A DNA stretch of 64,000 nucleotides, taken from Polyangiales bacterium (GTDB taxonomy: Bacteria; Myxococcota_A; Polyangia; Polyangiales; JADJQN01). This document shows positions 16,410-27,577 of the stretch, in pieces. The DNA lies in assembly GCA_964202905.1 (NCBI GenBank), contig CAXNJO010000004.1, forward strand, positions 192,001 to 256,000, read 5' to 3'. The notes beneath the pieces were generated by a model that worked only from the letters and a program-made list of their open reading frames with translations, was not told the origin of the DNA and did no database searches. Position 1 is the first letter of the stretch. Every line of letters begins with the position of its first letter. The translations under genes and the position numbers were made by a program.

Positions 16410-16874
16410 CTAGACGGCCGCCCCCGCGATCGCCGACAAGGCCTTCTGCACGTCGGCGACGTGCCGACCGATCAACAGCTCGTGGTGAAACACGCCGCGA
16501 ACGAGGCCGTCCGGCGCGATGACGTAGGTGACGCGCCGCACGCCGAGGCCGAACGCCCGCGTCGCCTGGAAACGTTTCGCCAGCGCGCCAGCCGGATCCG
16601 CGATGAGCGTGAAGGGCAGGCCGTGCTTGTCCGCGAAGCGCTTGTGCGAGGCCTCGTCGTCGACGCTGACACCCACGATCGTCGCGCCCCGCGCGTCGAG
16701 GTCCGCGAAGGCGTCGCGGAAGTTGCACGCCTCGATCGTGCAACCGGGCGTGAAGTCGCGCGGGTAGAAGTAGAGGACCACGGGGCCCCTCGCCAGGAGC
16801 GCATGGGAGTCGACCTCTCGCCCGTCCTGGTCACGACCGCTGAATTCGGGGGCTTTCTCGCCGACCTGGAGCAT
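16410..16874 (-). CDS. bcp: Peroxiredoxin BCP/PrxQ
   Basis: [16 protein letters not shown]; start at ATG 16874. Confidence 0.92.
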
Positions 16875-16968
16875 GGGACGGAGTTGGGTCCGGCCACGAC
16901 GCTGCGCAAGGCGTGCCCCGGCAAGCCCCGCGCGGGGCATCCGCGAGCGCGCAATCGAAGCCCGCGCG

Positions 16969-16995
16969 TTGACGCCTCGGGAGGTGCGTGATAAT
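16969..16995 (+). promoter_or_regulatory. Possible rplS promoter TTGACG...GATAAT
   Basis: Both hexamers present but the spacer is only 15 nt. Confidence 0.35.
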
Positions 16996-17055
16996 TCTCC
17001 GCCCCTTCCCGCGAGAGGCTGTCAGTCCCTCTCCCGCTTCCGGAGTGAGAACGTC

Positions 17056-17439
17056 ATGGGTAGCAGCGTCCCCCAGATCGAAGCCATCGAGCGTGCGCAG
17101 TTCCGCCAGCTCCCCGAGTTCCGCGTCGGTGACACCATCAAGGTGCACTACCGCATCCGCGAGGGAGAGAAGGAGCGCATCCAGATCTTCCAGGGGCTGG
17201 TGATCCGCAAGTCGCGCGGCGGCGTCGGCACCACCTTCTGCGTCCGCAAGGTGAGCTACAGCGTCGGGGTCGAGCGCGTCTTCCCGCTCCACTCGCCCCG
17301 CATCGAGACGATCGAGGTCACCAGCCGCGGCCGCGTCCGTCGCTCGCGCCTCTACTATCTTCGCGACCTCGAGGGCAAGAAGGCCCGCCTCAAGGAGCGC
17401 GCCGCCCCGACGGCACAGGCTGTCGCCGCCGCGACCTGA
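17056..17439 (+). CDS. rplS: 50S ribosomal protein L19
   Basis: [41 protein letters not shown]. Confidence 0.98.
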
Positions 17440-17463
17440 GCGACAGGTCGGCCCGATGGAATG

Positions 17464-17500
17464 CGAGGCGGGTCCCCCCGGGGGCTCGCCTCGTTTCGTT
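17464..17500 (+). terminator. Rho-independent terminator after rplS
   Basis: Stem CGAGGCGGGTCCC/GGGGCTCGCCTCG (two G-U pairs) followed by TTTCGTT. Confidence 0.7.
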
Positions 17501-17647
17501 GGTATGCCGCCAAGTCGCGGCGAAGGAGCGCCACAGCGTCTGCCCGCTGCGGCGCGAAACCCGGCGAGAACGACACCCACGAGCGACGCTCTCCGGCCGC
17601 CGTGCAGCGCTGACGCCGCACCGCACATCCGGCTGGCGCGCCGCGTC

Positions 17648-18451
17648 CTAGCCGAGCACGCGCAGCAATTCGTTGAGCGAGCCGGTGCGGTAGCCCGCGA
17701 GGTCGAGCGTGACGAACGTGTACCCGACGCGCTTCCCGACCGCGACGATGGCGTCGCGCTGCATGAAGGCGCTCTCGAGCTCGGCACGCGAGACCTCGAT
17801 GCGCGCCAGCTCGCCGTGGTGCCGGACGCGCACCTGACGCAGACCGAGATCTTTGAGAGCGTCCTCGAGCGCGCCGATCTGTGCGAGACGTTCGCGCGTG
17901 ACGGGCGTGCCGTAGGGGATGCGCGAGCTCAGGCATGCCGAGGCCGGCTTGTCCCAGACGTCCATGCCGAGCGAGCGCGCGAGCTCGCGCACCTCGGCCT
18001 TGCTCAACCCCGCCTCGACGAGCGGGCTGCGCACCCCGGCCTCACGCGCCGCCTCGAGACCGGGGCGGTAGTCACCGAGGTCGTCCGTGTTCGTGCCGTT
18101 GACGACCACCGCGAGGCCGAGCGTCTCGCGCTGGCGGGCCGTCGTCCGGTAGAGCTCGGACTTGCAGAAAAAGCAGCGATTCTGAGGGTTTGCCGCGTAG
18201 TTTGGGTCGCTCAGCTCGTCGGTGGCGACGACGACGTGCCGCGCGCCGAGCGCCTGCGCGATCCGCTCGGCGTCGAGGCGTTCGCGTTCGGGCAGCGAGG
18301 GGCTCACGGCGGTGAGGCCGACGGCCCGCTCGCCGAGCACGTCCGTCGCCACCTTCAGCACGAAGGCGCTGTCGAGACCGCCGCTGTACGCGACGAGGAC
18401 CGAGCCCATCTCGGAGACGATCTGTCGGAGTTGCGCGAGCTTGTCGGACAT
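17648..18451 (-). CDS. larE: LarE-family PP-loop ATP-dependent sulfur transferase (CxxC...C type)
   Basis: AYSGGLDS, RCFFCK, NGTNTDDLGDYRPG, WDKPASACLSSRIPYG, LDLAGYRTGSLN. Confidence 0.92.
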   Translation of the reverse strand: MSDKLAQLRQIVSEMGSVLVAYSGGLDSAFVLKVATDVLGERAVGLTAVSPSLPERERLDAERIAQALGARHVVVATDELSDPNYAANPQNRCFFCKSELYRTTARQRETLGLAVVVNGTNTDDLGDYRPGLEAAREAGVRSPLVEAGLSKAEVRELARSLGMDVWDKPASACLSSRIPYGTPVTRERLAQIGALEDALKDLGLRQVRVRHHGELARIEVSRAELESAFMQRDAIVAVGKRVGYTFVTLDLAGYRTGSLNELLRVLG

Positions 18452-18517
18452 GGGCCGCGCTTCTAGCGCCCGGCCTCCGGCGCGACAAGCCAGCCTGCTC
18501 GGACTGCGCGCACGCGT

Positions 18518-18859
18518 TCAGAGCGAGGGGATGAACGGTGCCTTGCCGGTCGAGGGGGTCTCGTAGGTCTTCTCGCTGCCATCTCGCAGGCGGATCTTCC
18601 AGAGCGTCTTGTGCTTCATCGCGCGGCCCTTGAGTTTCACGCCGCGCACCACGACGCTCGCCGGGAGCTGCATGTGAATGGCCTGCGTGGGGCAGACCTT
18701 GACGCACGCCGCGCAGTCCCAGCACTCGCGGTTGTCGCGGATCGCGGCCTTGCCGTTGGCCTTCAGGATCATGAGATCGCCGGGGCAATCGCGGACGCAC
18801 ATGGGCTCTTCCGCCGTCCCGCAGCCGTTGCACGCGCGCTCGTCGACGAAGATTCCCAT
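18518..18859 (-). CDS. aprB: Adenylylsulfate reductase beta subunit-like 2x[4Fe-4S] ferredoxin
   Basis: CNGCGTAEEPMCVRDCP and ECWDCAACVKVCP; TGATG coupling to aprA. Confidence 0.85.
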   Translation of the reverse strand: MGIFVDERACNGCGTAEEPMCVRDCPGDLMILKANGKAAIRDNRECWDCAACVKVCPTQAIHMQLPASVVVRGVKLKGRAMKHKTLWKIRLRDGSEKTYETPSTGKAPFIPSL

Positions 18860-20616
18860 CAGCCTTCTCCTCGCTGCACCACGCCCACGCCATCCGTCAG
18901 CGAGGGCAGCACGACCGCGAGCGGCGTCCGCACGACGGGGCGCTCGAGGACCTCGATGCGGCCATCGCGGGCACGCCGCGTGTTCACGAAGACCGTCCAG
19001 CGCGCGTCGTCGCGCTCCGGGTAGTCGAGGCGCTCCTGGTAGCAGTGCCAGCGCGTCTCGCGGCGGTGGAGCATGTGTTCGACGAGCACGCGCGCGACGG
19101 TCACGCGCTCAATCACCTCGTGACAGAGCATGAGCGCGTGCGGCTCGTCGGCGCGGAGGGCGGAGACCTCCTGTTCGAGCCGCTCGAGGTGCAGGCGCGC
19201 GATCTTCAGCTCGCCCTCGCTCGTGCCGTAGCCGACCCCGATGCCGCCGGCGTACTCGTCCATGATCTTCTGGAGGCGCTCTTCGAGGTCGGTGCACGAG
19301 AGGCCCTCGCTGTCCTCGAGGGGCGCGAAGACGCGGTCGCGCTCGGCGAGCACATCTTCTTCGTCGAGCTCGGGCGCCGCCGTCTGCGAACGCGCGTGCG
19401 CGATCATGTCGCGCACCGCGAGCACGGCCTCGGCCCACGCGCCGGAGGCATACTTCTTCGGCACGCCGCCCGCGACGTCGCCCGCGGCCCAGAGACCTTC
19501 GAGCGTGGTGCGGCGGCGCTCGTCGACCCAGTAGCCGCTGAGCCCGTGGCCGCCGACGACGAGCGGCTCGCCGCCCGTGATCTCGACGGGCGCCATCTCG
19601 CCACCGTGCTTCGCGTAGTAGGCCTCGTCGCTCATGATCATCGCGGCGGGCGGGGCCATCGAGAGATAGCTGCGGATGGTGCCCTCGAGCCGACGCGGGT
19701 TGACGCCGCCGAGGTCGAGATAGCAGGGCCCGCGGCCCGCGCGGCGCTCGAGCAGCGTCGCGTAGAGGCGGTCCTGCGTCGTCATGCGCTTTCCGCCGAG
19801 GTGCGCGTAGTACTTCTCGAGGTACTTCTCGCCGCGCGCGTTGATCTGATCGGCCTCGAGCCACTGCGCGATCTCGCCCGTCGGCGCGATGGCGTCCTTG
19901 ATGCGCAGCGGGATGAAGCGGTACTCGAACGACGTGAGCTCCGCGCCCGCGCGGAAGCCCATCGCGAGCCCGGCGCCCGTGTTGTAGGGCGAATACCACA
20001 TGCGGTGCGCGGCCATGCCCGGGTTGGAGGGGCGGTAGAGGCCGGCGGCGCCGCCCGTGCAGACGAGCACGGCCTTCGCCGCGACCGCCACGAAGCGACC
20101 GGTGCGCACGTGGAAGGCGTAGGCGCCGACGACGCGCCCGCGCCGCGTCGCGAGGCCCGTCACGTTCATGCGATTCAACACGCGCACGCCCGAGGCCTCG
20201 ACGCGCTTCGCGAGGATCGGCTTGATGCGCTCGCCGAAGATCTTCACCGACGCGCGCCCGCGCTTCACGGCGCGGCCGTGCTCGTCGCGCGCGATGGGCA
20301 GGCCCCACGCCTCGACGCGGTGCGACTGCTCGTTGAGCTCACGCGCCATCGAGAGCACGAGATCGTCGCGCACGACGCCGAAGGTGTCGCGCTGCACGTA
20401 GCGCAGGAACGACTCGGGCGTCTCGCCCTCGGTGAGATAGGCGTTGAGCGCGCTGATGCCCGCGGCGAGGCAGCCCGAGCGCTGGATGTGCGCTTTCTCG
20501 AGCAGCACGACGTCGAGGCCCGGGTCGCGCTCCTTCGCCTCGACGGCCGCGACGCAGCCGGCCGCGCCACCGCCGATCACGAGCAGATCGCACTGGAGGG
20601 ACTCGATGTCGATCAC
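18859..20616 (-). CDS. aprA: Adenylylsulfate reductase alpha subunit (FAD), clostridial/assimilatory-like
   Basis: GGGAAG FAD motif, RSGCLAAGISALNAY, MWYSPYNTGAG, FEYRFIPLRIKD, RRETRW; GAGGAG SD. Confidence 0.88.
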   Translation of the reverse strand: MIDIESLQCDLLVIGGGAAGCVAAVEAKERDPGLDVVLLEKAHIQRSGCLAAGISALNAYLTEGETPESFLRYVQRDTFGVVRDDLVLSMARELNEQSHRVEAWGLPIARDEHGRAVKRGRASVKIFGERIKPILAKRVEASGVRVLNRMNVTGLATRRGRVVGAYAFHVRTGRFVAVAAKAVLVCTGGAAGLYRPSNPGMAAHRMWYSPYNTGAGLAMGFRAGAELTSFEYRFIPLRIKDAIAPTGEIAQWLEADQINARGEKYLEKYYAHLGGKRMTTQDRLYATLLERRAGRGPCYLDLGGVNPRRLEGTIRSYLSMAPPAAMIMSDEAYYAKHGGEMAPVEITGGEPLVVGGHGLSGYWVDERRRTTLEGLWAAGDVAGGVPKKYASGAWAEAVLAVRDMIAHARSQTAAPELDEEDVLAERDRVFAPLEDSEGLSCTDLEERLQKIMDEYAGGIGVGYGTSEGELKIARLHLERLEQEVSALRADEPHALMLCHEVIERVTVARVLVEHMLHRRETRWHCYQERLDYPERDDARWTVFVNTRRARDGRIEVLERPVVRTPLAVVLPSLTDGVGVVQRGEG

Positions 20617-20629
20617 GCGTGCTCCTCGT

Positions 20630-21139
20630 TCACTCGACGCGCAGCGCGCCCTCGCGGAAGTCGTTCGTGCCCGGCACGTGCACCCAGAGCTTGCGGTCGA
20701 CGGCGCGCCCCTCGATGACGCTCACGACGAGGAACGCGCACGGCCACATCAGGGTGCCGTCGCTCGCGAAGGTGGCCGCGTCCTCCTTCGAGAAATAGGC
20801 GCCCGCGTCGCAGTGCGAGTGATAGATGACCTTGATCGGGCGGCCGCTCGCCTCGCCCGCCTCGAAGGCGCGCGCAGCCCGCAACTCGTTGATCTTGAAG
20901 TACATCCGGCTCGTCCGCGGGAAGCGTTCCGGGTCGAGCGCGTGGTAGCGGTCGGCCTCGTTGCGCTCGCGCACGCCCGCGTCGAGGCGCCCGGGATCGC
21001 CCGCAGGCCCGGAGAGGAAACCGCACGCCTCGCTCGGGTACTCGGCGACGGCGTGGGCCTCGACGTCCGCGAGGACCGTGGCGTCGATGGCGAGGTCACC
21101 GCGGATCCAGGCGCGCTCGCCCGTCTGCTCACCACTCAT
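20630..21139 (-). CDS. JAMM/MPN+ metalloprotease (Mec-like CysO-Cys peptidase)
   Basis: YPSEACG plus HSHCDAGAYFSKED (HxH-x7-S-x2-D). Confidence 0.9.
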   Translation of the reverse strand: MSGEQTGERAWIRGDLAIDATVLADVEAHAVAEYPSEACGFLSGPAGDPGRLDAGVRERNEADRYHALDPERFPRTSRMYFKINELRAARAFEAGEASGRPIKVIYHSHCDAGAYFSKEDAATFASDGTLMWPCAFLVVSVIEGRAVDRKLWVHVPGTNDFREGALRVE

Positions 21140-22073
21140 GGTGTTTCTCCCAGCGCCGCGGCGCGAAGTAGCGGTCCCCGCGATCGCACGCGATCGCCAC
21201 GATGCAGCCCGTCTCGCCGCGCGCCGCGAGGCGCCTCGCGAGCACGAGCGCGCCGTACGCATTCGCGCCCGTCGAGTGGCCGACGTGCAGGCCCTCATCG
21301 GCCGCGATGCGCTCGGCCATGTCCCAGCCGTCCTCGGTGCCGACGCGCAGGATCTCGTCGGGCACGCTCGCGTCGTAGATCGCCGGCACGATCGACGAGG
21401 CCATGTGCTTGAGCCCCTCGAGTCCGTGGAGCGCCTCCGCGGGCTCGACGGCCACGCACATGATCGGACGCGTGTGCTCCTTCAGGCGGCGCGTCGTGCC
21501 CATGATCGTGCCCGTCGTGCCGATCCCCGCGACGAAGTGCGTGACCTCGTCGCCGACCTGCTCGAGGATCTCGCGGCCCGTGCCGAGGTAGTGCGCGAGC
21601 GGGTTCGACGGGTTGGAGTACTGGTCGGGGTAGAAGTACTTGTCCGGGTCGCGCGCGACGATCTCGCGGCAGTGGCGGATGGCGCCGTCCGAGCCCTCCA
21701 TCGGGTCGGAGAAGATGAGCTCCGTGCCGTAGGCGCGCGTGATGTTCTTCCGCGCCTGGGAGACGTTCGCGGGCATCACGAGCGCGATGCGGTAACCGAG
21801 GGCCGCGCCGAAGAGCGAGTACGCGACGCCGGTGTTGCCGCTCGTCGAGTCGATGAGGGTGCGGTCCCGCGTGAGGCGCCCCTCGGCGATGGCATCCTGC
21901 ATCATGCGCAGCGCAGGGCGGTCCTTCACGGAGCCGCCCGGGTTCATGTACTCGAGCTTCAGGTAGAGCTTCACGCCGGGCGCCTCGCGCCCCACGTGGC
22001 GCAGCCGCACGAGGGGCGTGTTGCCCACGGCCTCCACGACGGAGTCCAGCCGGCGATCGAAGCGCTGGGTCAC
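21129..22073 (-). CDS. cysM: PLP-dependent cysteine synthase family protein (CysM-like, probably carrier-dependent)
   Basis: VGNTPLV, NPGGSVKDR, STSGNTG, DQYSNPSN, GIGTTGT, LEGLK; next to carrier and JAMM genes. Confidence 0.88.
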   Translation of the reverse strand: MTQRFDRRLDSVVEAVGNTPLVRLRHVGREAPGVKLYLKLEYMNPGGSVKDRPALRMMQDAIAEGRLTRDRTLIDSTSGNTGVAYSLFGAALGYRIALVMPANVSQARKNITRAYGTELIFSDPMEGSDGAIRHCREIVARDPDKYFYPDQYSNPSNPLAHYLGTGREILEQVGDEVTHFVAGIGTTGTIMGTTRRLKEHTRPIMCVAVEPAEALHGLEGLKHMASSIVPAIYDASVPDEILRVGTEDGWDMAERIAADEGLHVGHSTGANAYGALVLARRLAARGETGCIVAIACDRGDRYFAPRRWEKHHEW

Positions 22074-22083
22074 GGCCGCGGCC

Positions 22084-22413
22084 TCACCCTTCCTCGACGT
22101 CGAGGCGCAGCCCCGCCGGCCAGCGGCCCAGGCTGCCGACGCCGCTCAGCGCCTTGATCGTCTCGACCGCCGCGAACGCGCCGAGGAGCGCCGCGGCGGC
22201 CTCGCGCAGCCGCGGGTCCGCGACGAGGTCCGCCGGTGTCGCGCCCGGTTCGGAGATCGCTGGCCCCGCTGCATCGAAGGTGGTCCCGGCCCGCGCGAGG
22301 TAGCTGCGCGCGGTCTCGTCGGACGGCGCGCATGGCCGCGCGTCGCAGAGAGCGCGCTGCGCGGACTCGCCGAGCACCTGCACCTGCCGGACGAAGCGCC
22401 GCGGATCGCCCAC
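22084..22413 (-). CDS. Small degenerate MoeB/ThiF paralog (pseudo-E1), 109 aa
   Basis: RFVRQVQVLGESAQRAL, ARSYLARAG and GAFAAVETIKALSGVG resemble MoeB segments; no GxGxxG; GTG start 1 nt after the carrier stop. Confidence 0.65.
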   Translation of the reverse strand: MGDPRRFVRQVQVLGESAQRALCDARPCAPSDETARSYLARAGTTFDAAGPAISEPGATPADLVADPRLREAAAALLGAFAAVETIKALSGVGSLGRWPAGLRLDVEEG

Positions 22414-22414
22414 G

Positions 22415-22688
22415 TCAGCCCCCGGCGATCGCGGGGACGATGGAGAGCGACTCGCTATCCTTGAGGATGGTGTCGAGGTTGTCGAGGAAGCGGATGTCCT
22501 CGTCGTTCGCATAGAGGTTGACGAAGCGGCGCACGCCTTTTTCGTCGCAGAGGCGGTCCTTGAGGCCCGGGTGCGCGGCGCTCGAGCGCGTCGATGATCG
22601 CGCGCACGGTGCCGGCGGCGACCTCGACCTCGTCCTTACCCTGCGTGAGCGTGCGGAGCGGCGTGGGGATGCGAACGATCACGGACAT
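22415..22688 (-). pseudogene. cysO: MoaD/CysO ubiquitin-like sulfur carrier with a 1-nt insertion (possibly assembly error)
   Basis: [17 protein letters not shown]...DALE, then after removing one base near 22581: [54 protein letters not shown]; 274 nt = 91 codons + 1. Confidence 0.9.
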
Positions 22689-22737
22689 CGGGTTTCTCCT
22701 GGGAATGCGGGGTCGAAAGGGGGGAGGCTGCGCGGGT

Positions 22738-23496
22738 TCAGGCGCAGTCGGGCACGCGGTAGTCGTCAAGCGAGAGCGCAGGGACGCGGCCCGCGCAGAG
22801 GGGGCAATCGGCGCGGCGGCGCAGGCGGGTCCGACGCACCGCGCCGCGCAGGCCGTCATAGCGCCAGAGCACGCCCGCGGCGTGTGTGTCGCCAGCCGCG
22901 AGGCGGAGGGCGAGGACGGCCTCGAGCGCGCCGAGCACGCCGACGACCGGGCCGATGACGCCGGCCTCCGCGCACGTCTCGGGGGGCGCGGCCTGGCCTC
23001 CCTGCGCGGCGAGGCGGGCAGGGAGGTCCTCGAAGACGCAGCGGAGACACGCGCTCACGCCGGGCACGCTGGCGAGCGCCCAGCCCGCCCAGCGCACGCA
23101 CCCCGCCTGCACGGCAGCGACGCGCGCGCGGGCGCAGGCGTCGGCGACGAGGAACTTCGTCGCGAAGTTGTCCGCGCCCTCGACGACGAGATCGACATCG
23201 GCGAGCAGCGCGAGCGCACGATCGGGCGTGAAGCGCGCCTCGACGCCCTGCACCGCGACGCCCGAGGCCGCCGCCTCCGCGAGGGCGCGCAGCCGCGCCA
23301 CGGCCCGCGCGACCTTCGGCGCGCCGACGTCGGCTTCGTCGAACAGCGTTTGCCGGTGGAGGTTCGAGCGCTCGACGACGTCGTCGTCAACGACCGTCAG
23401 CGCCGCGATGCCCGGCGCGCACGCGAGCAGGTGAAGCGCGGGTGCGCCGAGGCCCCCCGCGCCGACCACCAGCACGCGCGCGCCGCGGGCGCTCAC
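22738..23496 (-). CDS. HesA/MoeB/ThiF family adenylyltransferase lacking the N-terminal RYxRQ segment
   Basis: VLVVGAGGLG, SNLHRQ, CLRC, TCAEAGVIGP, CPLC; GTG overlaps the cysK stop; no rhodanese domain. Confidence 0.9.
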   Translation of the reverse strand: MSARGARVLVVGAGGLGAPALHLLACAPGIAALTVVDDDVVERSNLHRQTLFDEADVGAPKVARAVARLRALAEAAASGVAVQGVEARFTPDRALALLADVDLVVEGADNFATKFLVADACARARVAAVQAGCVRWAGWALASVPGVSACLRCVFEDLPARLAAQGGQAAPPETCAEAGVIGPVVGVLGALEAVLALRLAAGDTHAAGVLWRYDGLRGAVRRTRLRRRADCPLCAGRVPALSLDDYRVPDCA

Positions 23497-24434
23497 GCCG
23501 GGGGGCTCCGGAAGTAGGTGTCGAGGCTGAAGTAGCGCTCCCCCGTGTCGCAGAGCACGCAGACGACGTTCTTGCCGGGGCCGAGCTCCCGCGCGAGCGC
23601 CAGGGCGACGACGACGTTCGCGCCCGCGCTGATGCCGACGAGCAACCCTTCCTCGCGGGCGAGACGCTCCTTCATCGCGTAGGCCTCGCGATCGCCGACC
23701 GTGCGGATCTCGTCGACGACGCCCCGATCGAAGTTGTCGGGTACGAAGCCGGCGCCGATGCCCTGGATTTTCGTGGGCCCGGGCTCGCCGCCGCTCAGCA
23801 CGGGGCTCTGCGCGGGCTCGACGGCGACGATGCGCGTGCCGGGGCGCTCGGCCCGCAGCACGCGCCCGACGCCGCTGATGGTGCCGCCCGTTCCGACGGC
23901 CGCGACGAAGGCGTCGAGGGAGTCGTCGGCGAAGCGCTCGAGCAGCTCGCGCGCCGTCGTCTCGGCGTGGCGCGCCGGGTTCGCGGGGTTCGAGAACTGC
24001 ATCGGCATGAACGCGCCCCGCTGCGCGACGAGCTCTTCGGCCGCCTCGATCGCGCCCTCCATCACGCGCTCGGCCGGCGTGAGGATGATCTCGGCGCCGT
24101 ACGCCTCGAGCAGCGCGCGCCGCTCGAGCGACATGCTCTCCGGCATCGCGAGCGCGAGTTTGTAACCCTTGACCGCGCAGGCGAGGGCGAGTCCGATGCC
24201 GGTGTTGCCGCTCGTCGGCTCGACGACCAGTTGCCCGGGTCGGAGCGTCCCCGCGCGCTCGGCGGCCTCGATCATCGCGAGCCCGACGCGGTCCTTGACG
24301 GAGCCGCCCGGGTTGAACTGCTCGGCCTTGCCCCACACCGTCGCGCAGCCTTCTTCGACGACGCGACGCAGCCGGATCACGGGCGTGGCACCCACGAGAT
24401 CCAGCACGCTCTCGACGACTTGTGCGCTCCCCAT
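23493..24434 (-). CDS. cysK: Cysteine synthase A
   Basis: NPGGSVKDR, EPTSGNTGIGLA, MPESMSLERR, QFSNPAN, KIQGIGAGF, DTGERY. Confidence 0.95.
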   Translation of the reverse strand: MGSAQVVESVLDLVGATPVIRLRRVVEEGCATVWGKAEQFNPGGSVKDRVGLAMIEAAERAGTLRPGQLVVEPTSGNTGIGLALACAVKGYKLALAMPESMSLERRALLEAYGAEIILTPAERVMEGAIEAAEELVAQRGAFMPMQFSNPANPARHAETTARELLERFADDSLDAFVAAVGTGGTISGVGRVLRAERPGTRIVAVEPAQSPVLSGGEPGPTKIQGIGAGFVPDNFDRGVVDEIRTVGDREAYAMKERLAREEGLLVGISAGANVVVALALARELGPGKNVVCVLCDTGERYFSLDTYFRSPPA

Positions 24435-24449
24435 GCGGCCTCCGCAGCG

Positions 24450-24911
24450 TCAGATGACGTACACGTATTGGCCCGCGCCCCGCCGCCGCAGGCCGAGCGC
24501 CTCGCCGCGCTCGACGAGCTGGGCGAACGTGACCGCGTCGAGCGCCGCGTCGATGCGCTCGCCGACCTCGCGGAACGCCTGCTCGGTCACGCCGAGGCTC
24601 GTCGGATCGACGGCGTCGCCGATCTCTCCGGACTCCGGGGAGGCGAGGTCGATGGGCCCCTCGAGCGCACGGACGACATCACCGAGCGTGAGCGCCTCCG
24701 GCTCGCGCGCGAGCTGGTAGCCCCCGCGGGGACCGCGCTTCGAGGTCACGATCCCCGCACGCTTGAGGTCTTGGAAGATCTGCTCGAGGAAGCGGGCCGG
24801 GATGTCCTGGCGCTCGGCGATGTCCTTGATCTGCGTGGCCTTTCCGTCGTTGTGGAAGGCGACGTCGAACACCGCGCGGACCCCGTATCGACCCTTGCTC
24901 GAGAGCTTCAC
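24450..24911 (-). CDS. Rrf2-family regulator, CymR-like (no Cys, ends YVYVI)
   Basis: MKLSSKGRYG, FLEQI, SKRGPRGGYQLAR, LEGP. Confidence 0.92.
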   Translation of the reverse strand: MKLSSKGRYGVRAVFDVAFHNDGKATQIKDIAERQDIPARFLEQIFQDLKRAGIVTSKRGPRGGYQLAREPEALTLGDVVRALEGPIDLASPESGEIGDAVDPTSLGVTEQAFREVGERIDAALDAVTFAQLVERGEALGLRRRGAGQYVYVI

Positions 24912-24948
24912 GCCACCCCATCGCGCTGCGATGTGCAGCGCGGTGAAG

Positions 24949-24978
24949 AATGTGCACTTACCCTATCGGGTTTGTCAA
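24949..24978 (-). promoter_or_regulatory. Putative promoter of the sulfur operon (TTGACA-N18-CACATT) with imperfect palindrome ACCCGATAGGGT in the spacer
   Basis: Perfect -35 at 24973-24978; palindrome at 24960-24971 is a candidate Rrf2 operator. Confidence 0.5.
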
Positions 24979-25007
24979 CAACGAACTCGATGACCCGCGT
25001 GCGGGTG

Positions 25008-25679
25008 TCAGAGCCCGATCGAGCCCTCGATCATCACCGTCCCGAAGAGCCCCTGCTGCGTGATCGTGGTGTCGTCGCGCGGCCCCGTTTCGCGGCCGTC
25101 GTTCGACGCGGAGGTGAAGGCCCAGCCCCACTCGGTGCCGATGGCGAGCCCTTCCACGATCTGGCCACGGATGCCGACGGCGAGGTTCACGCCGAACGCG
25201 CTCGTTTCGTCGGTCTCCACGATGGTCGTCATCGCACGGCGGCGAATTTCGACGGTCGCCGCGCTGATCGGCGCAAAGCTGAACCAGCCGCCCGCGTAGA
25301 GCGACGCGGGGCCGGCCCGGAGCACGTCGAAGAAGACCATCGGCGAGAGCGTGAAGTAGCTCTGCGACACGGAGTCGAAGTCGTCGCAGGTGTCTTCGCA
25401 GGTGGTCACGTCCACGCTCCCGAAGCCGAGACCGAGGCCGACGAAGAGCCTCCCGTCGAGGAGGCGCACGCCCGGCGTGGCGTACGGCGTGATGCTGCGC
25501 AGCTGGCCCAGGACGTCCGTCGGCACCGTATACGCCATGGCGTCGAGGCGGCCCTGGAGGGCCAGCTGGACCCCGCTCCGGCGCGGAGCCGGCGGCGCAG
25601 CGGCGTCCTGGGCAGAGACCGTCGCCGAAAAGAGTAGGGCCGTGAGCAGCGTGGCCGCGAGCGTGGACAGGAGACGCAT
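25008..25679 (-). CDS. Exported protein, probable outer-membrane beta-barrel
   Basis: Signal peptide ending VSA-Q, alternating amphipathic strands, GGAGG SD. Confidence 0.65.
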   Translation of the reverse strand: MRLLSTLAATLLTALLFSATVSAQDAAAPPAPRRSGVQLALQGRLDAMAYTVPTDVLGQLRSITPYATPGVRLLDGRLFVGLGLGFGSVDVTTCEDTCDDFDSVSQSYFTLSPMVFFDVLRAGPASLYAGGWFSFAPISAATVEIRRRAMTTIVETDETSAFGVNLAVGIRGQIVEGLAIGTEWGWAFTSASNDGRETGPRDDTTITQQGLFGTVMIEGSIGL

Positions 25680-25771
25680 GATCGGATCCTCCAAGCTGCG
25701 CACCATAACAGCAGATGCTTTCCACGCGAGCGGGAGCGGAGTAGGGTCCGGCCGCGGAAGGGAGCGCCGGG

Positions 25772-27577
25772 ATGCGCGTGTGCGAGTCGTGTCGGTCGCG
25801 CTTCAAGGACGGCGCGACGGTGTGCCCGCTCGACGGCGGGCGCCTGCTCGAGCTCCCCGATCCGCTGATCGGGCGGACGATCTCCGGGCGCTACACCGTG
25901 CTCGAGAAGCTCGGCGCAGGCGGTATGGGCACCGTCTACCGCGGGCGGCACGACGTCTTCGAGCGCGACCTCGCGCTGAAGTTCCTCGCGCCCGAGCTCG
26001 CGCACGACGCGGTCAGCCGCGCGCGCTTCCTGCGGGAGGCGCGCGCCGCCAACCGCATCCAGCACGAGCACATCATCGAGGTCACGGACTTCGGCGAGAC
26101 CGACGACGGCCTCGTCTACCTCGTGATGGAGTACCTCGACGGATGCCCGCTCTCGCGCGCCATCGCCGAGGGGCCCATGCCGGTCTCGCGCGTCCTGCCG
26201 ATCACGATCCAGCTCGCCTCGGCGATCGCGCGCGCGCACGAGTTCGACGTCATCCACCGCGACATCAAGCCGGACAACGTCTACCTCGTCGATCGGGACA
26301 ACGACCCCGACTTCGTGAAGGTCCTCGATTTCGGCATCGCCCACATGAAGGGCGATCTCCGGCTCACGGCGACGGGCACGGTGTTCGGAACGCCCGAGTA
26401 CATCGCGCCGGAGCAGGCGCGCGGCGCGCCGCTGACGCACGCCGTCGACCTCTACGCCGTCGGCTGCGTCTTCTTCGAGATGGTGACCGGGCGGCTGCCG
26501 TTCCGCGGGAGCACGCCCGAACTGATCGTCAAACACATCCGCGAGGCCCCGCCCCGCCCCTCCTCGCTCGTCGCGGAACTCCCGCCCCTCGTCGATGAGA
26601 TCGCGCTGCGTCTCCTCGCGAAGGACCCCGCCGCGCGCCACCGCGACGGCTACCACCTCCTCGACGATCTACGGCGCCTGCAGCGCGCCTTGGCGCCGGC
26701 ATCGAGCCGTGTGCCCGCCACGCCTCCGCGCCGTGCCTACGCGGGGATCATGCCCGCGGTGTCCATCGATGCGGCGTCGATGCGGCCCGCTGCGGCACAG
26801 CTGCCCACGACGCGCGCGCACCTGACGCTCGACGCGGCGCACTGGTGGTCCGAGCGCGCGACGTTGCTGCGCACGCTGGTCCAGCAGGCGCACCCGCGCG
26901 GCGACATGCCCGAGTGGCTCGGTCGTGCCGTCGCGGAGGTCGAGGCGGACGCGGCGACGCTCGCGCATCACCGAAGGAACCTCGCTCACCTCGCGCAGCG
27001 GAGCGCGGAGACGGAGCAGCGAGCCCGCGAGACGCGGCTGCGCATCGGGCGTGCGCTCGACGAACTCGTGAGCGACGAATCGCGCGCCGCCCGCGCGCTC
27101 CGGGAGTTCGAGAGCCGCGCAGAGGGCACACACAGCCGGCTGTCGGACGTCGAGCGTCCACTCGCGGAATCCTGGGAGTCCCTGCGCCGCGCGCAGGCGG
27201 GCAACGCCGCGATCTCGGTCGAGCTCGCGAATGCCCTCCGCGAGACGGGCGCGCTCGCGTCAGCGTGGCTCGAACTCGCCCGCGCCGATCACGCGGTCGC
27301 CCGTGAGCTCGCCGAGCGGCGCCGAGAGCGCGAAGACCTCGGGTTCCAGGTCGCGCAACTCAAGGGCCGCCTCGGCGCGATCCAGGCGGAGGCCGAGCAC
27401 GAGCTCGGGACGTTGCGCGCCGAGAGCGCACGCCTCGACTCGGCGTCCACGGCGTTGGGCGATGCGCTCGCCCGCCAAGCGACGCCCATCGTCCAGCACC
27501 TCGTCCAGTGGCCCGCGCTGCGCGCGGCGCTCTCGTTCGGCGGCACGCAGCCTGGCAGGACCGCCGCCGCGCGTTGA
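25772..27577 (+). CDS. Ser/Thr protein kinase with N-terminal Zn-ribbon-like segment and C-terminal coiled coil
   Basis: CESC...CPLDG; GAGGMG, ALK, HRDIKPDN, DFG, GTPEYIAPE; no TM segment seen. Confidence 0.95.
   Translation: MRVCESCRSRFKDGATVCPLDGGRLLELPDPLIGRTISGRYTVLEKLGAGGMGTVYRGRHDVFERDLALKFLAPELAHDAVSRARFLREARAANRIQHEHIIEVTDFGETDDGLVYLVMEYLDGCPLSRAIAEGPMPVSRVLPITIQLASAIARAHEFDVIHRDIKPDNVYLVDRDNDPDFVKVLDFGIAHMKGDLRLTATGTVFGTPEYIAPEQARGAPLTHAVDLYAVGCVFFEMVTGRLPFRGSTPELIVKHIREAPPRPSSLVAELPPLVDEIALRLLAKDPAARHRDGYHLLDDLRRLQRALAPASSRVPATPPRRAYAGIMPAVSIDAASMRPAAAQLPTTRAHLTLDAAHWWSERATLLRTLVQQAHPRGDMPEWLGRAVAEVEADAATLAHHRRNLAHLAQRSAETEQRARETRLRIGRALDELVSDESRAARALREFESRAEGTHSRLSDVERPLAESWESLRRAQAGNAAISVELANALRETGALASAWLELARADHAVARELAERRREREDLGFQVAQLKGRLGAIQAEAEHELGTLRAESARLDSASTALGDALARQATPIVQHLVQWPALRAALSFGGTQPGRTAAAR

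Follow-up and report, generated by a model that had tools for sequence, protein, structure and literature searches.

A 64,000-nucleotide stretch of contig CAXNJO010000004.1 from a Polyangiales bacterium assembly (GCA_964202905.1), referred to here as the window, carries ten minus-strand genes arranged head to tail that quite probably represent a conserved operon of Polyangiales-type Myxococcota, in which a reductive step of sulfate assimilation is coupled to two routes of cysteine synthesis, one of them employing an E1 adenylyltransferase built from two proteins. We propose that CysDN and adenosine 5′-phosphosulfate (APS) kinase, both encoded elsewhere in the genome, would supply APS along with 3′-phosphoadenosine 5′-phosphosulfate (PAPS), that the AprAB-like flavo-iron-sulfur enzyme of the operon would reduce PAPS to sulfite, and that a sulfite reductase, also encoded elsewhere, would convert sulfite to sulfide, which CysK would combine with O-acetylserine to give cysteine. 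In the parallel route, E1 would adenylate the Gly-Gly terminus of a CysO-like sulfur carrier, the carrier would then be converted to a thiocarboxylate, a CysM-like enzyme would condense this with activated serine, and a JAMM protease would free the cysteine, as well as trimming the carrier's C-terminal tail in those species that have one. The product of a small gene, orfX, would pair with the catalytic E1 through the canonical ThiF/MoeB dimer interface and supply an arginine in trans. Expression would be governed by an Rrf2-family regulator acting from a conserved promoter-operator, and LarE would be an add-on working with larB and larC genes located elsewhere.

The genes were located in this G+C-rich window (~72%) by third-position G+C content and open frames, followed by family searches. 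They are given here from the head of the operon to its end, with lengths in amino acids (aa) where relevant:

24965..24981, minus strand: TTGACA-like -35 hexamer and then CCGAT, a motif conserved on the upstream side of the Rrf2 gene (alignment by eye)
24450..24911, minus strand: Rrf2-family transcription factor, 153 aa (Pfam Rrf2, 127.7 bits)
23493..24434, minus strand: CysK, O-acetylserine sulfhydrylase A (TIGR01139 cysK, 401.1 bits, cut-off 350.95)
22738..23496, minus strand: ThiF/MoeB-type E1 adenylyltransferase, 252 aa (Pfam ThiF, 178 bits, profile positions 20-237)
22415..22688, minus strand: CysO/ThiS-like sulfur carrier, frameshifted at ~22580 (Pfam ThiS, 31.5 bits, C-terminal part)
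22084..22413, minus strand: orfX, 109 aa, degenerate mini-ThiF (family profile A2; no Pfam or NCBIfam match of its own)
21129..22073, minus strand: CysM-like cysteine synthase dependent on pyridoxal phosphate (PLP) (Pfam PALP, 211 bits)
20630..21139, minus strand: JAMM/Prok-JAB metalloprotease, Mec+/HcyD-like (Pfam Prok-JAB, 53.9 bits, cut-off 25)
18859..20616, minus strand: AprA-like alpha subunit, binding flavin adenine dinucleotide, of an assimilatory (P)APS reductase (NF005331, 716.7 bits, cut-off 557)
18518..18859, minus strand: AprB-like beta subunit with two [4Fe-4S] clusters, short form of 113 aa (best Protein Data Bank (PDB) match 8a8o_C)
17648..18451, minus strand: LarE-family ATP-dependent sulfur transferase, accessory (TIGR00268, 329.3 bits, cut-off 150)

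A preliminary description of this locus had noted ten co-directional genes with junctions from Rrf2 to AprB of 15 nucleotides (nt) or less, or overlapping, except for 49 nt before the carrier gene, and the strand, family matches and coordinates all agree with it. Successive junctions are a 15 nt gap, a 4 nt overlap and a 49 nt gap from Rrf2 to the carrier; gaps of 1 nt and 10 nt and an 11 nt overlap from the carrier to JAMM; and a 13 nt gap, a 1 nt overlap and then 66 nt before LarE. The broader interpretation offered at that stage is upheld in part, as set out below.

Twenty-eight species-level genomes share this gene order. When one genome per species was scanned, 78 loci with 10-kb flanks were obtained, and we define a Myxococcota set as the 28 in which AprA is at least 65% identical to that of the window, all of which have Myxococcota-type titles; presence was scored by tblastn with the window proteins, and the denominators are those loci with sufficient flanking sequence to judge. 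JAMM and CysM are present in all 28, each before AprA and CysM always adjoining JAMM, and the carrier (26/26), CysK (23/23) and AprB (24/24) are equally constant, such that the earlier expectation that aprAB is co-conserved with the carrier genes holds. E1 is found in 22 of 25 loci (missing in L005, L007 and L010) and Rrf2 in 20 of 22 (missing in L010 and L028), while LarE follows AprB in 10 of 21. From these counts the segment from Rrf2 to AprB is a stable unit to which LarE is accessory, and the recurrence of the arrangement is not due to chance. The placement of the locus in myxobacteria is also confirmed: homologues of the AprA-like protein number in the thousands, and the names of the closest (70–98% identity) assign them to metagenome-assembled genomes (MAGs) of Polyangiales, Myxococcales or Myxococcota, and the nearest relatives of the locus are in Polyangiales, Sandaracinaceae and 'Myxococcales' MAGs. 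We note that the three Polyangiales loci L005, L007 and L010 have lost both E1 and orfX but retain Rrf2 and CysK (there is no Rrf2 in L010), the carrier, CysM, JAMM and AprAB; presumably these organisms use another E1.

The truncated E1 and its small neighbour orfX

The E1 protein begins later than ThiF and MoeB. It aligns with residues 29–246 of Escherichia coli ThiF and 30–248 of MoeB, its match to the Pfam ThiF profile starts at position 19–20, and in 20 of 20 relatives the start lies 5–25 residues before the GxGGLG motif and directly after the CysK stop codon, from which it follows that the N-terminal RYxRQ segment carrying the arginine finger is missing throughout the clade. This segment is absent from the E1 polypeptide and is found on orfX instead. 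The Rossmann, SNLxRQ and zinc-coordinating cysteine-pair signatures are otherwise all in place, with G12, G14, G15, N45, R48, Q49, C150, C153, C231 and C234 invariant. Cys175 is also invariant and aligns with the crossover-loop cysteine of ThiF, a residue with a functional role in that enzyme. The 252-residue protein has no rhodanese match and scores 119 bits against the MoeZ family NF005902, for which the cut-off is 647.

The tenth gene, orfX, had been counted in the preliminary description but left unidentified, and the split E1 was missed. An open reading frame of 107–151 codons occupies the orfX position, between carrier and CysM, in 23 loci. Alignment of 22 orfX sequences (profile A2) reveals (R)YAR(H/Q)LLLPEIGxxGQERL at the N-terminus, an element of strand, helix and strand that is now vestigial, and a C-terminal GAFAAVEAIK helix, with one arginine and several glycine, leucine, tyrosine and alanine positions invariant. 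The profile matches E. coli ThiF at residues 3–77 (E 5e-9) and 199–218 and MoeB at 4–94 and 199–220, and it also matches Uba4 and, weakly, SAE1 (residues 8–49 and 11–52, E 0.4–0.6); the invariant arginine aligns with Arg11 of ThiF. The orfX of the window has no Pfam or NCBIfam match, but three of the 22 family members are still recognised by the Pfam ThiF profile (best E 1.7e-22), that of L028 being the most complete by eye. The loci without the gene are the same three that have no E1, and in six-frame searches outside of the Myxococcota clade the profile matches full-length ThiF genes only. The protein database contains 472 homologues of orfX at E ≤ 0.001, and among the best 120 of these nearly all are unnamed or 'hypothetical', with two having a precomputed ThiF domain.

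Arg11 of ThiF and Arg14 of MoeB are described as arginine fingers that enter the active site from the neighbouring subunit of the dimer, and in the yeast Tcd1–Tcd2 pair the degenerate partner Tcd1 completes the active site of Tcd2 with such a finger, according to PMC13139853. Structure prediction for E1 with orfX is consistent with an analogous arrangement. The complex scores 0.90, as against 0.00 for the best of three controls; among solved complexes 116 of 157 attained this mark, as did 2 of 215 mismatched pairs. At least 95% of contacts are common to the runs, and the predicted local distance difference test score (pLDDT) for the partner is at least 88. In the model, orfX helix 64–87 packs on E1 helix 178–201, and orfX residues 3, 5–10 and 12–14, the invariant arginine among them, contact E1 residues 43–48 in the SNLHRQ nucleotide motif. 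On its own orfX is also predicted to fold confidently (pLDDT 88.9), and the weak top rows of a Foldseek search with this model are nearly all chains of the E1 family.

It is reasonably likely that an E1 gene was duplicated and the two copies sub-functionalised, one retaining catalysis without the finger, the other keeping the finger and the interface and losing the rest. A wider proposition, for which we see about as much reason to believe as to doubt, is that myxobacteria evolved an asymmetric E1 with one active site independently of eukaryotes, for use with a CysO-type carrier and in a route wired to a PAPS-reductase-type AprAB; orfX would then be an inactive adenylation domain of ~110–150 residues, reduced to finger, vestigial Rossmann element and dimer helix. 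If so, the pair would constitute a natural intermediate between the homodimeric MoeB and ThiF enzymes and the heterodimeric E1s, a simple bacterial model for the origin of E1 asymmetry, and a function for several hundred small proteins now labelled 'hypothetical'. We found no description of a split bacterial sulfur-carrier E1 in open-access text.

A 390-residue protein with a rhodanese domain and a full-length ThiF/MoeB domain is encoded ~50 kb from the locus (C4:266087-267331), ~10 kb past the end of the window. Its own N-terminus, RYARH...GEKGQAKL, resembles the orfX consensus, and it is a possible ancestor of orfX as well as a possible sulfur donor.

Proposed sulfate reduction, cysteine formation and control

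The AprAB genes had been taken for an APS-reducing step, an assignment that we revise. The AprA-like protein belongs by score to NF005331, and both subunits fall well below the cut-offs of the dissimilatory families (340.4 bits versus 641.75 for aprA, TIGR02061; 71.2 versus 135.65 for aprB, TIGR02060). The closest PDB match of the alpha subunit is the PAPS reductase alpha chain 8a8o_A (630 bits, E 2.7e-188, residues 3–561), compared with 300 bits for the dissimilatory AprA structures of Archaeoglobus (1jnr and 2fja), and the best match of the beta subunit is the 104-residue PAPS reductase beta chain 8a8o_C (E 2.5e-20). This enzyme, from Methanothermococcus thermolithotrophicus, is built like a dissimilatory APS reductase but showed no reverse reaction; its activity is 0.114 U/mg with PAPS and 0.007 U/mg with APS, and its authors assign the PAPS specificity to the loop at residues 104–123 (PMC10322725). 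In the alignment with 8a8o_A the window protein has almost the same loop, and residues G105, L106, P107, D111, E112, R119, G120, R121, S123 and K125 are invariant in 15 myxobacterial homologues. Because the AprAB-like enzyme is nearest to a characterised PAPS reductase, PAPS is its most likely substrate, with APS less likely. Myxobacterial homologues are not mentioned in the sections of Jespersen and Wagner 2023 (PMC10322725) drawn on here.

As had been stated before, none of sat, cysDN, sulfite reductase, rhodanese and desulfurase is encoded in the locus itself. An inventory of the whole genome (5.68 Mb in 19 contigs, 94.5% complete) shows that CysD and CysN are encoded elsewhere, the latter without a fused kinase, together with a stand-alone APS kinase and, in an NIR_SIR search, one ferredoxin-type assimilatory sulfite reductase (Sir) of 762 residues without a TusA domain. 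That search of the 94.5% complete genome returned no second, DsrAB-like protein; Sat was not found, nor was CysH, the PAPS_reduct search of the same genome matching CysD alone. The AprAB-like enzyme is thus the one candidate found in this genome for the sulfite-forming step, to judge by sequence. A dissimilatory reading of AprAB was rejected, with both equivalog scores below cut-off and no DsrAB-like second NIR_SIR protein. Such 'aprA' genes, which look like assimilatory PAPS reductases but bear the annotation adenylylsulfate reductase, could be miscounted as dissimilatory sulfur-cycle markers in metagenome surveys. In a separate observation, a contig from metagenome run X1 omits one letter at each of positions 20197 and 20201 within the AprA-like gene (depth 4.74/9.01); variation between strains or an error in the contig may be the cause.

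The carrier ends in AIAGG followed directly by a stop codon, as reported earlier, and has the beta-grasp match and Gly-Gly terminus expected of its family; a frameshift in the gene had escaped notice. The N-terminal 36–37 codons are read in one frame and the C-terminal 52–54 in another, the change falling at ~22580. Among Logan contigs from four lake-water metagenome runs, one contig in each of runs X1 and X2 omits one letter at 22580 (depth 3.6/7.45 and 2.8/2.8 respectively), and dropping this base joins the two frames into a carrier gene of 90 codons. The carrier is a single frame of 90–100 residues in all 26 relatives, and in our view the frameshift is either a mistake of assembly or a minor variant; the study behind these runs may be the source of the assembly. 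A programmed frameshift was considered and rejected, given the contigs without the extra base and the single frame in all relatives. It had been concluded from the AIAGG end that JAMM is not needed for carrier maturation, which holds for the window but not for the clade. The carrier ends at the Gly-Gly in 11 of 26 relatives, and in the other 15 it extends 1–10 residues beyond, so that JAMM would be needed for maturation there; it is probably a maturase as well in species with tailed carriers. The E...HSHx7SxxD motif of JAMM/MPN+ proteases is intact by eye in its translation, and its PDB match is 2kcq, a Mov34/MPN family protein. The CysM-like protein scores 328.3 bits against cysM (TIGR01138, cut-off 394.2) and 329.7 against the cysKM subfamily (cut-off 344.15), with CysM of E. 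coli (232 bits) and of Mycobacterium tuberculosis (218 bits) its best PDB matches. We propose that it is the carrier-thiocarboxylate-dependent enzyme, an assignment made because of its invariant place beside JAMM.

The route of sulfur onto the carrier had been called unexplained. While there is indeed no rhodanese or desulfurase gene in the locus, the genome does contain CysDN, APS kinase, Sir and the rhodanese-MoeB fusion described above. Sulfide has reportedly served as a direct donor to the carrier when the mycobacterial system was reconstituted in vitro, and it is plausible that sulfide from the sulfite reductase plays this part here. LarE, which had been included in the proposed sulfur relay, is present, but as an accessory: it occurs in just 10 of 21 loci, and LarC (417 bits) and a LarB-like AIRC gene directly upstream of it are found at C2:151727-153525 with no LarE there. 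These two facts suggest that LarE serves the nickel-pincer cofactor, and not the carrier, and that it is probably the missing third gene of that cofactor's synthesis, placed beside sulfur assimilation. We have down-weighted LarE as sulfur donor on the same grounds. LarA (Lar_N) was not found in the window genome, and some enzyme other than LarA may depend on the cofactor in this organism.

The regulator had been identified as CymR. It scores below the CymR equivalog cut-off (NF047409, 93.7 versus 195 bits) and slightly higher, though also below cut-off, against IscR (102 versus 207), reaching the cut-off of the superfamily alone; the identification as CymR is thus not sustained. In Bacillus subtilis, CymR and CysK form a regulatory pair. 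The resemblance is that here too a cysteine operon opens with cysK next to the gene of an Rrf2-family regulator lacking cluster-ligand cysteines, the difference being the scores just given. The window Rrf2 protein contains no cysteine residues, and it probably controls the operon from its place next to CysK, conceivably by sensing cysteine. The motif upstream of its gene aligns by eye in all 21 upstream regions compared (the window and 20 relatives) and, defined by its conservation, is a probable promoter and Rrf2 operator. Written as 17 letters of the International Union of Pure and Applied Chemistry code, it has seven exact matches in the window genome including the locus itself (C4:216965-216981), with none adjoining cysDN, cysC or sir; with one mismatch there are 120 matches against 39 in a reversed control, which is not informative. 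A consensus scan for transcription signals gave no promoters, and two plus-strand terminator-like sites, the number expected by chance, and an Rfam scan of 16500-26000 detected no riboswitch or other RNA family. Downstream, the operon meets the convergent gene for ribosomal protein L19 (rplS, 16873-17439, plus strand); on its upstream side lies an outer-membrane-barrel-like gene, followed by a divergent Ser/Thr protein kinase gene (25772-27577, plus strand).

Alternative explanations of the locus

Several observations weigh against the readings preferred here, and they are best considered with the explanations that compete with them. It can be supposed that orfX has no function, being the decaying relic of a ThiF gene that was duplicated, and that the truncated E1 acts as a homodimer without an arginine finger. 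The finger is reported as dispensable for catalysis in ThiF and MoeB, and as absent from TcdA, in PMC13139853, from which E1 might work without orfX; moreover, mean column identity in orfX is just 32% and the window copy has no Pfam match. The modelled geometry is that of the ThiF/MoeB dimer, so that the passing score may reflect likeness to solved homodimers, the prediction used alignments made in this analysis, and the Foldseek search of the orfX model against the PDB has no match at E ≤ 0.001 (best E 0.74). A decaying gene would nonetheless have to account for an open frame of 107–151 codons kept in 23 species-level loci and represented by 472 database proteins, for an invariant arginine and several invariant glycine, leucine, tyrosine and alanine positions, for the joint loss of orfX with E1 in three of three loci, and for the confident fold and interface that are predicted. 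We consider decay unlikely, and a functional E1–orfX pair remains our preferred explanation.

The pathway as a whole can be questioned at three points. The AprAB-like enzyme might reduce APS directly as a ferredoxin-type stand-in for the missing CysH, with APS kinase serving sulfation only. NF005331 is named by NCBIfam as an adenylyl-sulfate reductase alpha family, CysN has no fused kinase, and the M. thermolithotrophicus enzyme retains a low activity with APS; the PAPS assignment is drawn from ~55% identity (by eye) to one characterised archaeal enzyme. Set against this, that sole characterised member favours PAPS ~16-fold (PMC10322725) and its specificity loop is conserved here, while APS kinase adjoins the aprA-like gene in Firmicutes loci and stands alone in the window genome, and we regard direct APS reduction as doubtful. 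Searches of five relatives gave a CysD-like match only in two, CysD-like and CysH-like matches in two, and neither in one; with a CysH-like gene in two of the five, the AprAB-like enzyme is not simply a replacement for CysH everywhere. It is very unlikely that the carrier gene of the window organism is a pseudogene, leaving the locus with CysK and a sulfate-reduction step only. The gene is frameshifted in the assembly, and the contigs that lack the additional base have low depth (2.8–3.6, and in X1 only 3.6/7.45) and come from one study; yet in two runs there are contigs lacking precisely the base whose omission restores the 90-residue frame, the flanking genes are all intact, and so are the carriers of 26 of 26 relatives. 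Least credible is that the carrier system makes something other than cysteine, be it homocysteine, a thio-cofactor or SAMP-like protein conjugates. Among the best NCBIfam matches of carrier, E1 and JAMM are SAMP1, the SAMP-activating E1 and desampylase, and related Firmicutes clusters have an O-acetylhomoserine-sulfhydrylase-type gene in place of CysM, but the SAMP-type scores are all far below their cut-offs, in all 28 loci the PLP enzyme beside JAMM belongs to the CysK/CysM family, genes resembling E2 or E3 are absent, and the operon opens with a regulator and CysK. On the other side of the account, the CysM-like protein is no closer to CysM of M. tuberculosis than to that of E. coli, lies below both NCBIfam cut-offs, and is tied to the carrier by neighbourhood; and co-transcription of the operon genes is presumed from the DNA. 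A coupling of PAPS reduction to cysteine formation by both CysK and the carrier is still the explanation that we prefer.

Comparison with known sulfur-carrier and sulfate-assimilation clusters

The remaining 50 of the 78 loci, in which AprA is 38–60% identical, belong to Clostridium, Halanaerobiales, Heliobacteria, Leptotrichia, Melainabacteria and Hydrothermarchaeales. In tblastn searches with the window proteins these have AprA–AprB but no CysM–JAMM pair, and JAMM, orfX and LarE are found in none of the 50. A Pfam scan of six of them detects more distant Prok-JAB genes in four, and shows complete sulfate-assimilation operons with Sat or CysD–CysN, with a sulfite reductase (often fused to TusA), and with ThiF and JAB genes, ThiS being present or not; this agrees with the earlier statement that clostridial clusters link aprAB with thiS/thiF/Mov34, ATP sulfurylase and sulfite reductase. 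Like the window locus, those of Clostridium, Natroniella, Halanaerobium and a Bacillota MAG associate aprAB-like genes with a carrier, an E1 and a JAB protein. They differ in having Sat or CysDN, APS kinase and sulfite reductase within the locus (in Clostridium moutaii and Natroniella the APS kinase gene directly precedes aprA), in having a full-length ThiF (profile positions 1–237), and, in the Firmicutes, in often having an O-acetylhomoserine-sulfhydrylase-type gene. The HcyS/HcyF/HcyD/MetY/Sir methionine pathway of Wolinella forms part of the background to this comparison. Some of these loci contain fusions worth recording: sulfite reductases with a C-terminal TusA next to ThiF/JAB in Firmicutes (L030:1354-3687, L037:4489-6819 and L051:6225-8618), Sat fused to TusA in L029, and in Halanaerobium (L051:12117-13139) an N-terminal ThiS fused to a full-length ThiF directly after aprB.

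Because the Firmicutes clusters already link aprAB with carrier genes, this kind of linkage is not new, while the myxobacterial form is distinct. Its particular combination of genes had been thought to be probably undescribed, and searches of open-access text found no paper on it. The new elements are the PAPS-reductase identity of 'AprAB' in Myxococcota, in the qualified sense given above, and, above all, the E1–orfX pair. For the reductase the comparison is with the M. thermolithotrophicus enzyme (8A8O; PMC10322725), which the window proteins resemble as the best PDB match of both subunits, in the short beta subunit and in the retained loop 104–123, and from which they differ in that the characterised enzyme is archaeal and has another gene context, the window protein being known as a sequence.

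The CysO/MoeZ(R)/CysM/Mec+ pathway of M. tuberculosis likewise clusters a Gly-Gly-ended ThiS-like carrier with a ThiF-family E1, a CysM-type enzyme and a JAMM protease. According to a 2022 review, CysM uses thiocarboxylated CysO and O-phosphoserine in that pathway, and the mycobacterial CysM/CysO system is unique to actinobacteria. The window locus is in Myxococcota, its E1 is N-terminally truncated with no rhodanese domain and has a separate mini-ThiF partner, and the cluster adds CysK, an Rrf2 regulator and a PAPS/APS reductase. A protein-thiocarboxylate route to cysteine that this review confines to actinobacteria thus appears in a large environmental clade of Myxococcota, where it sits in one operon with a putative sulfite-generating step.

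The closest parallels to the proposed E1–orfX pair are eukaryotic. In SAE1–SAE2, APPBP1–UBA3 and Tcd1–Tcd2 an inactive ThiF-like partner is paired with an active subunit (PMC13139853), as orfX would be with E1. Unlike those partners, orfX is a remnant of 107–151 residues, is bacterial, and belongs to a sulfur-carrier operon with no E2 or conjugation genes.

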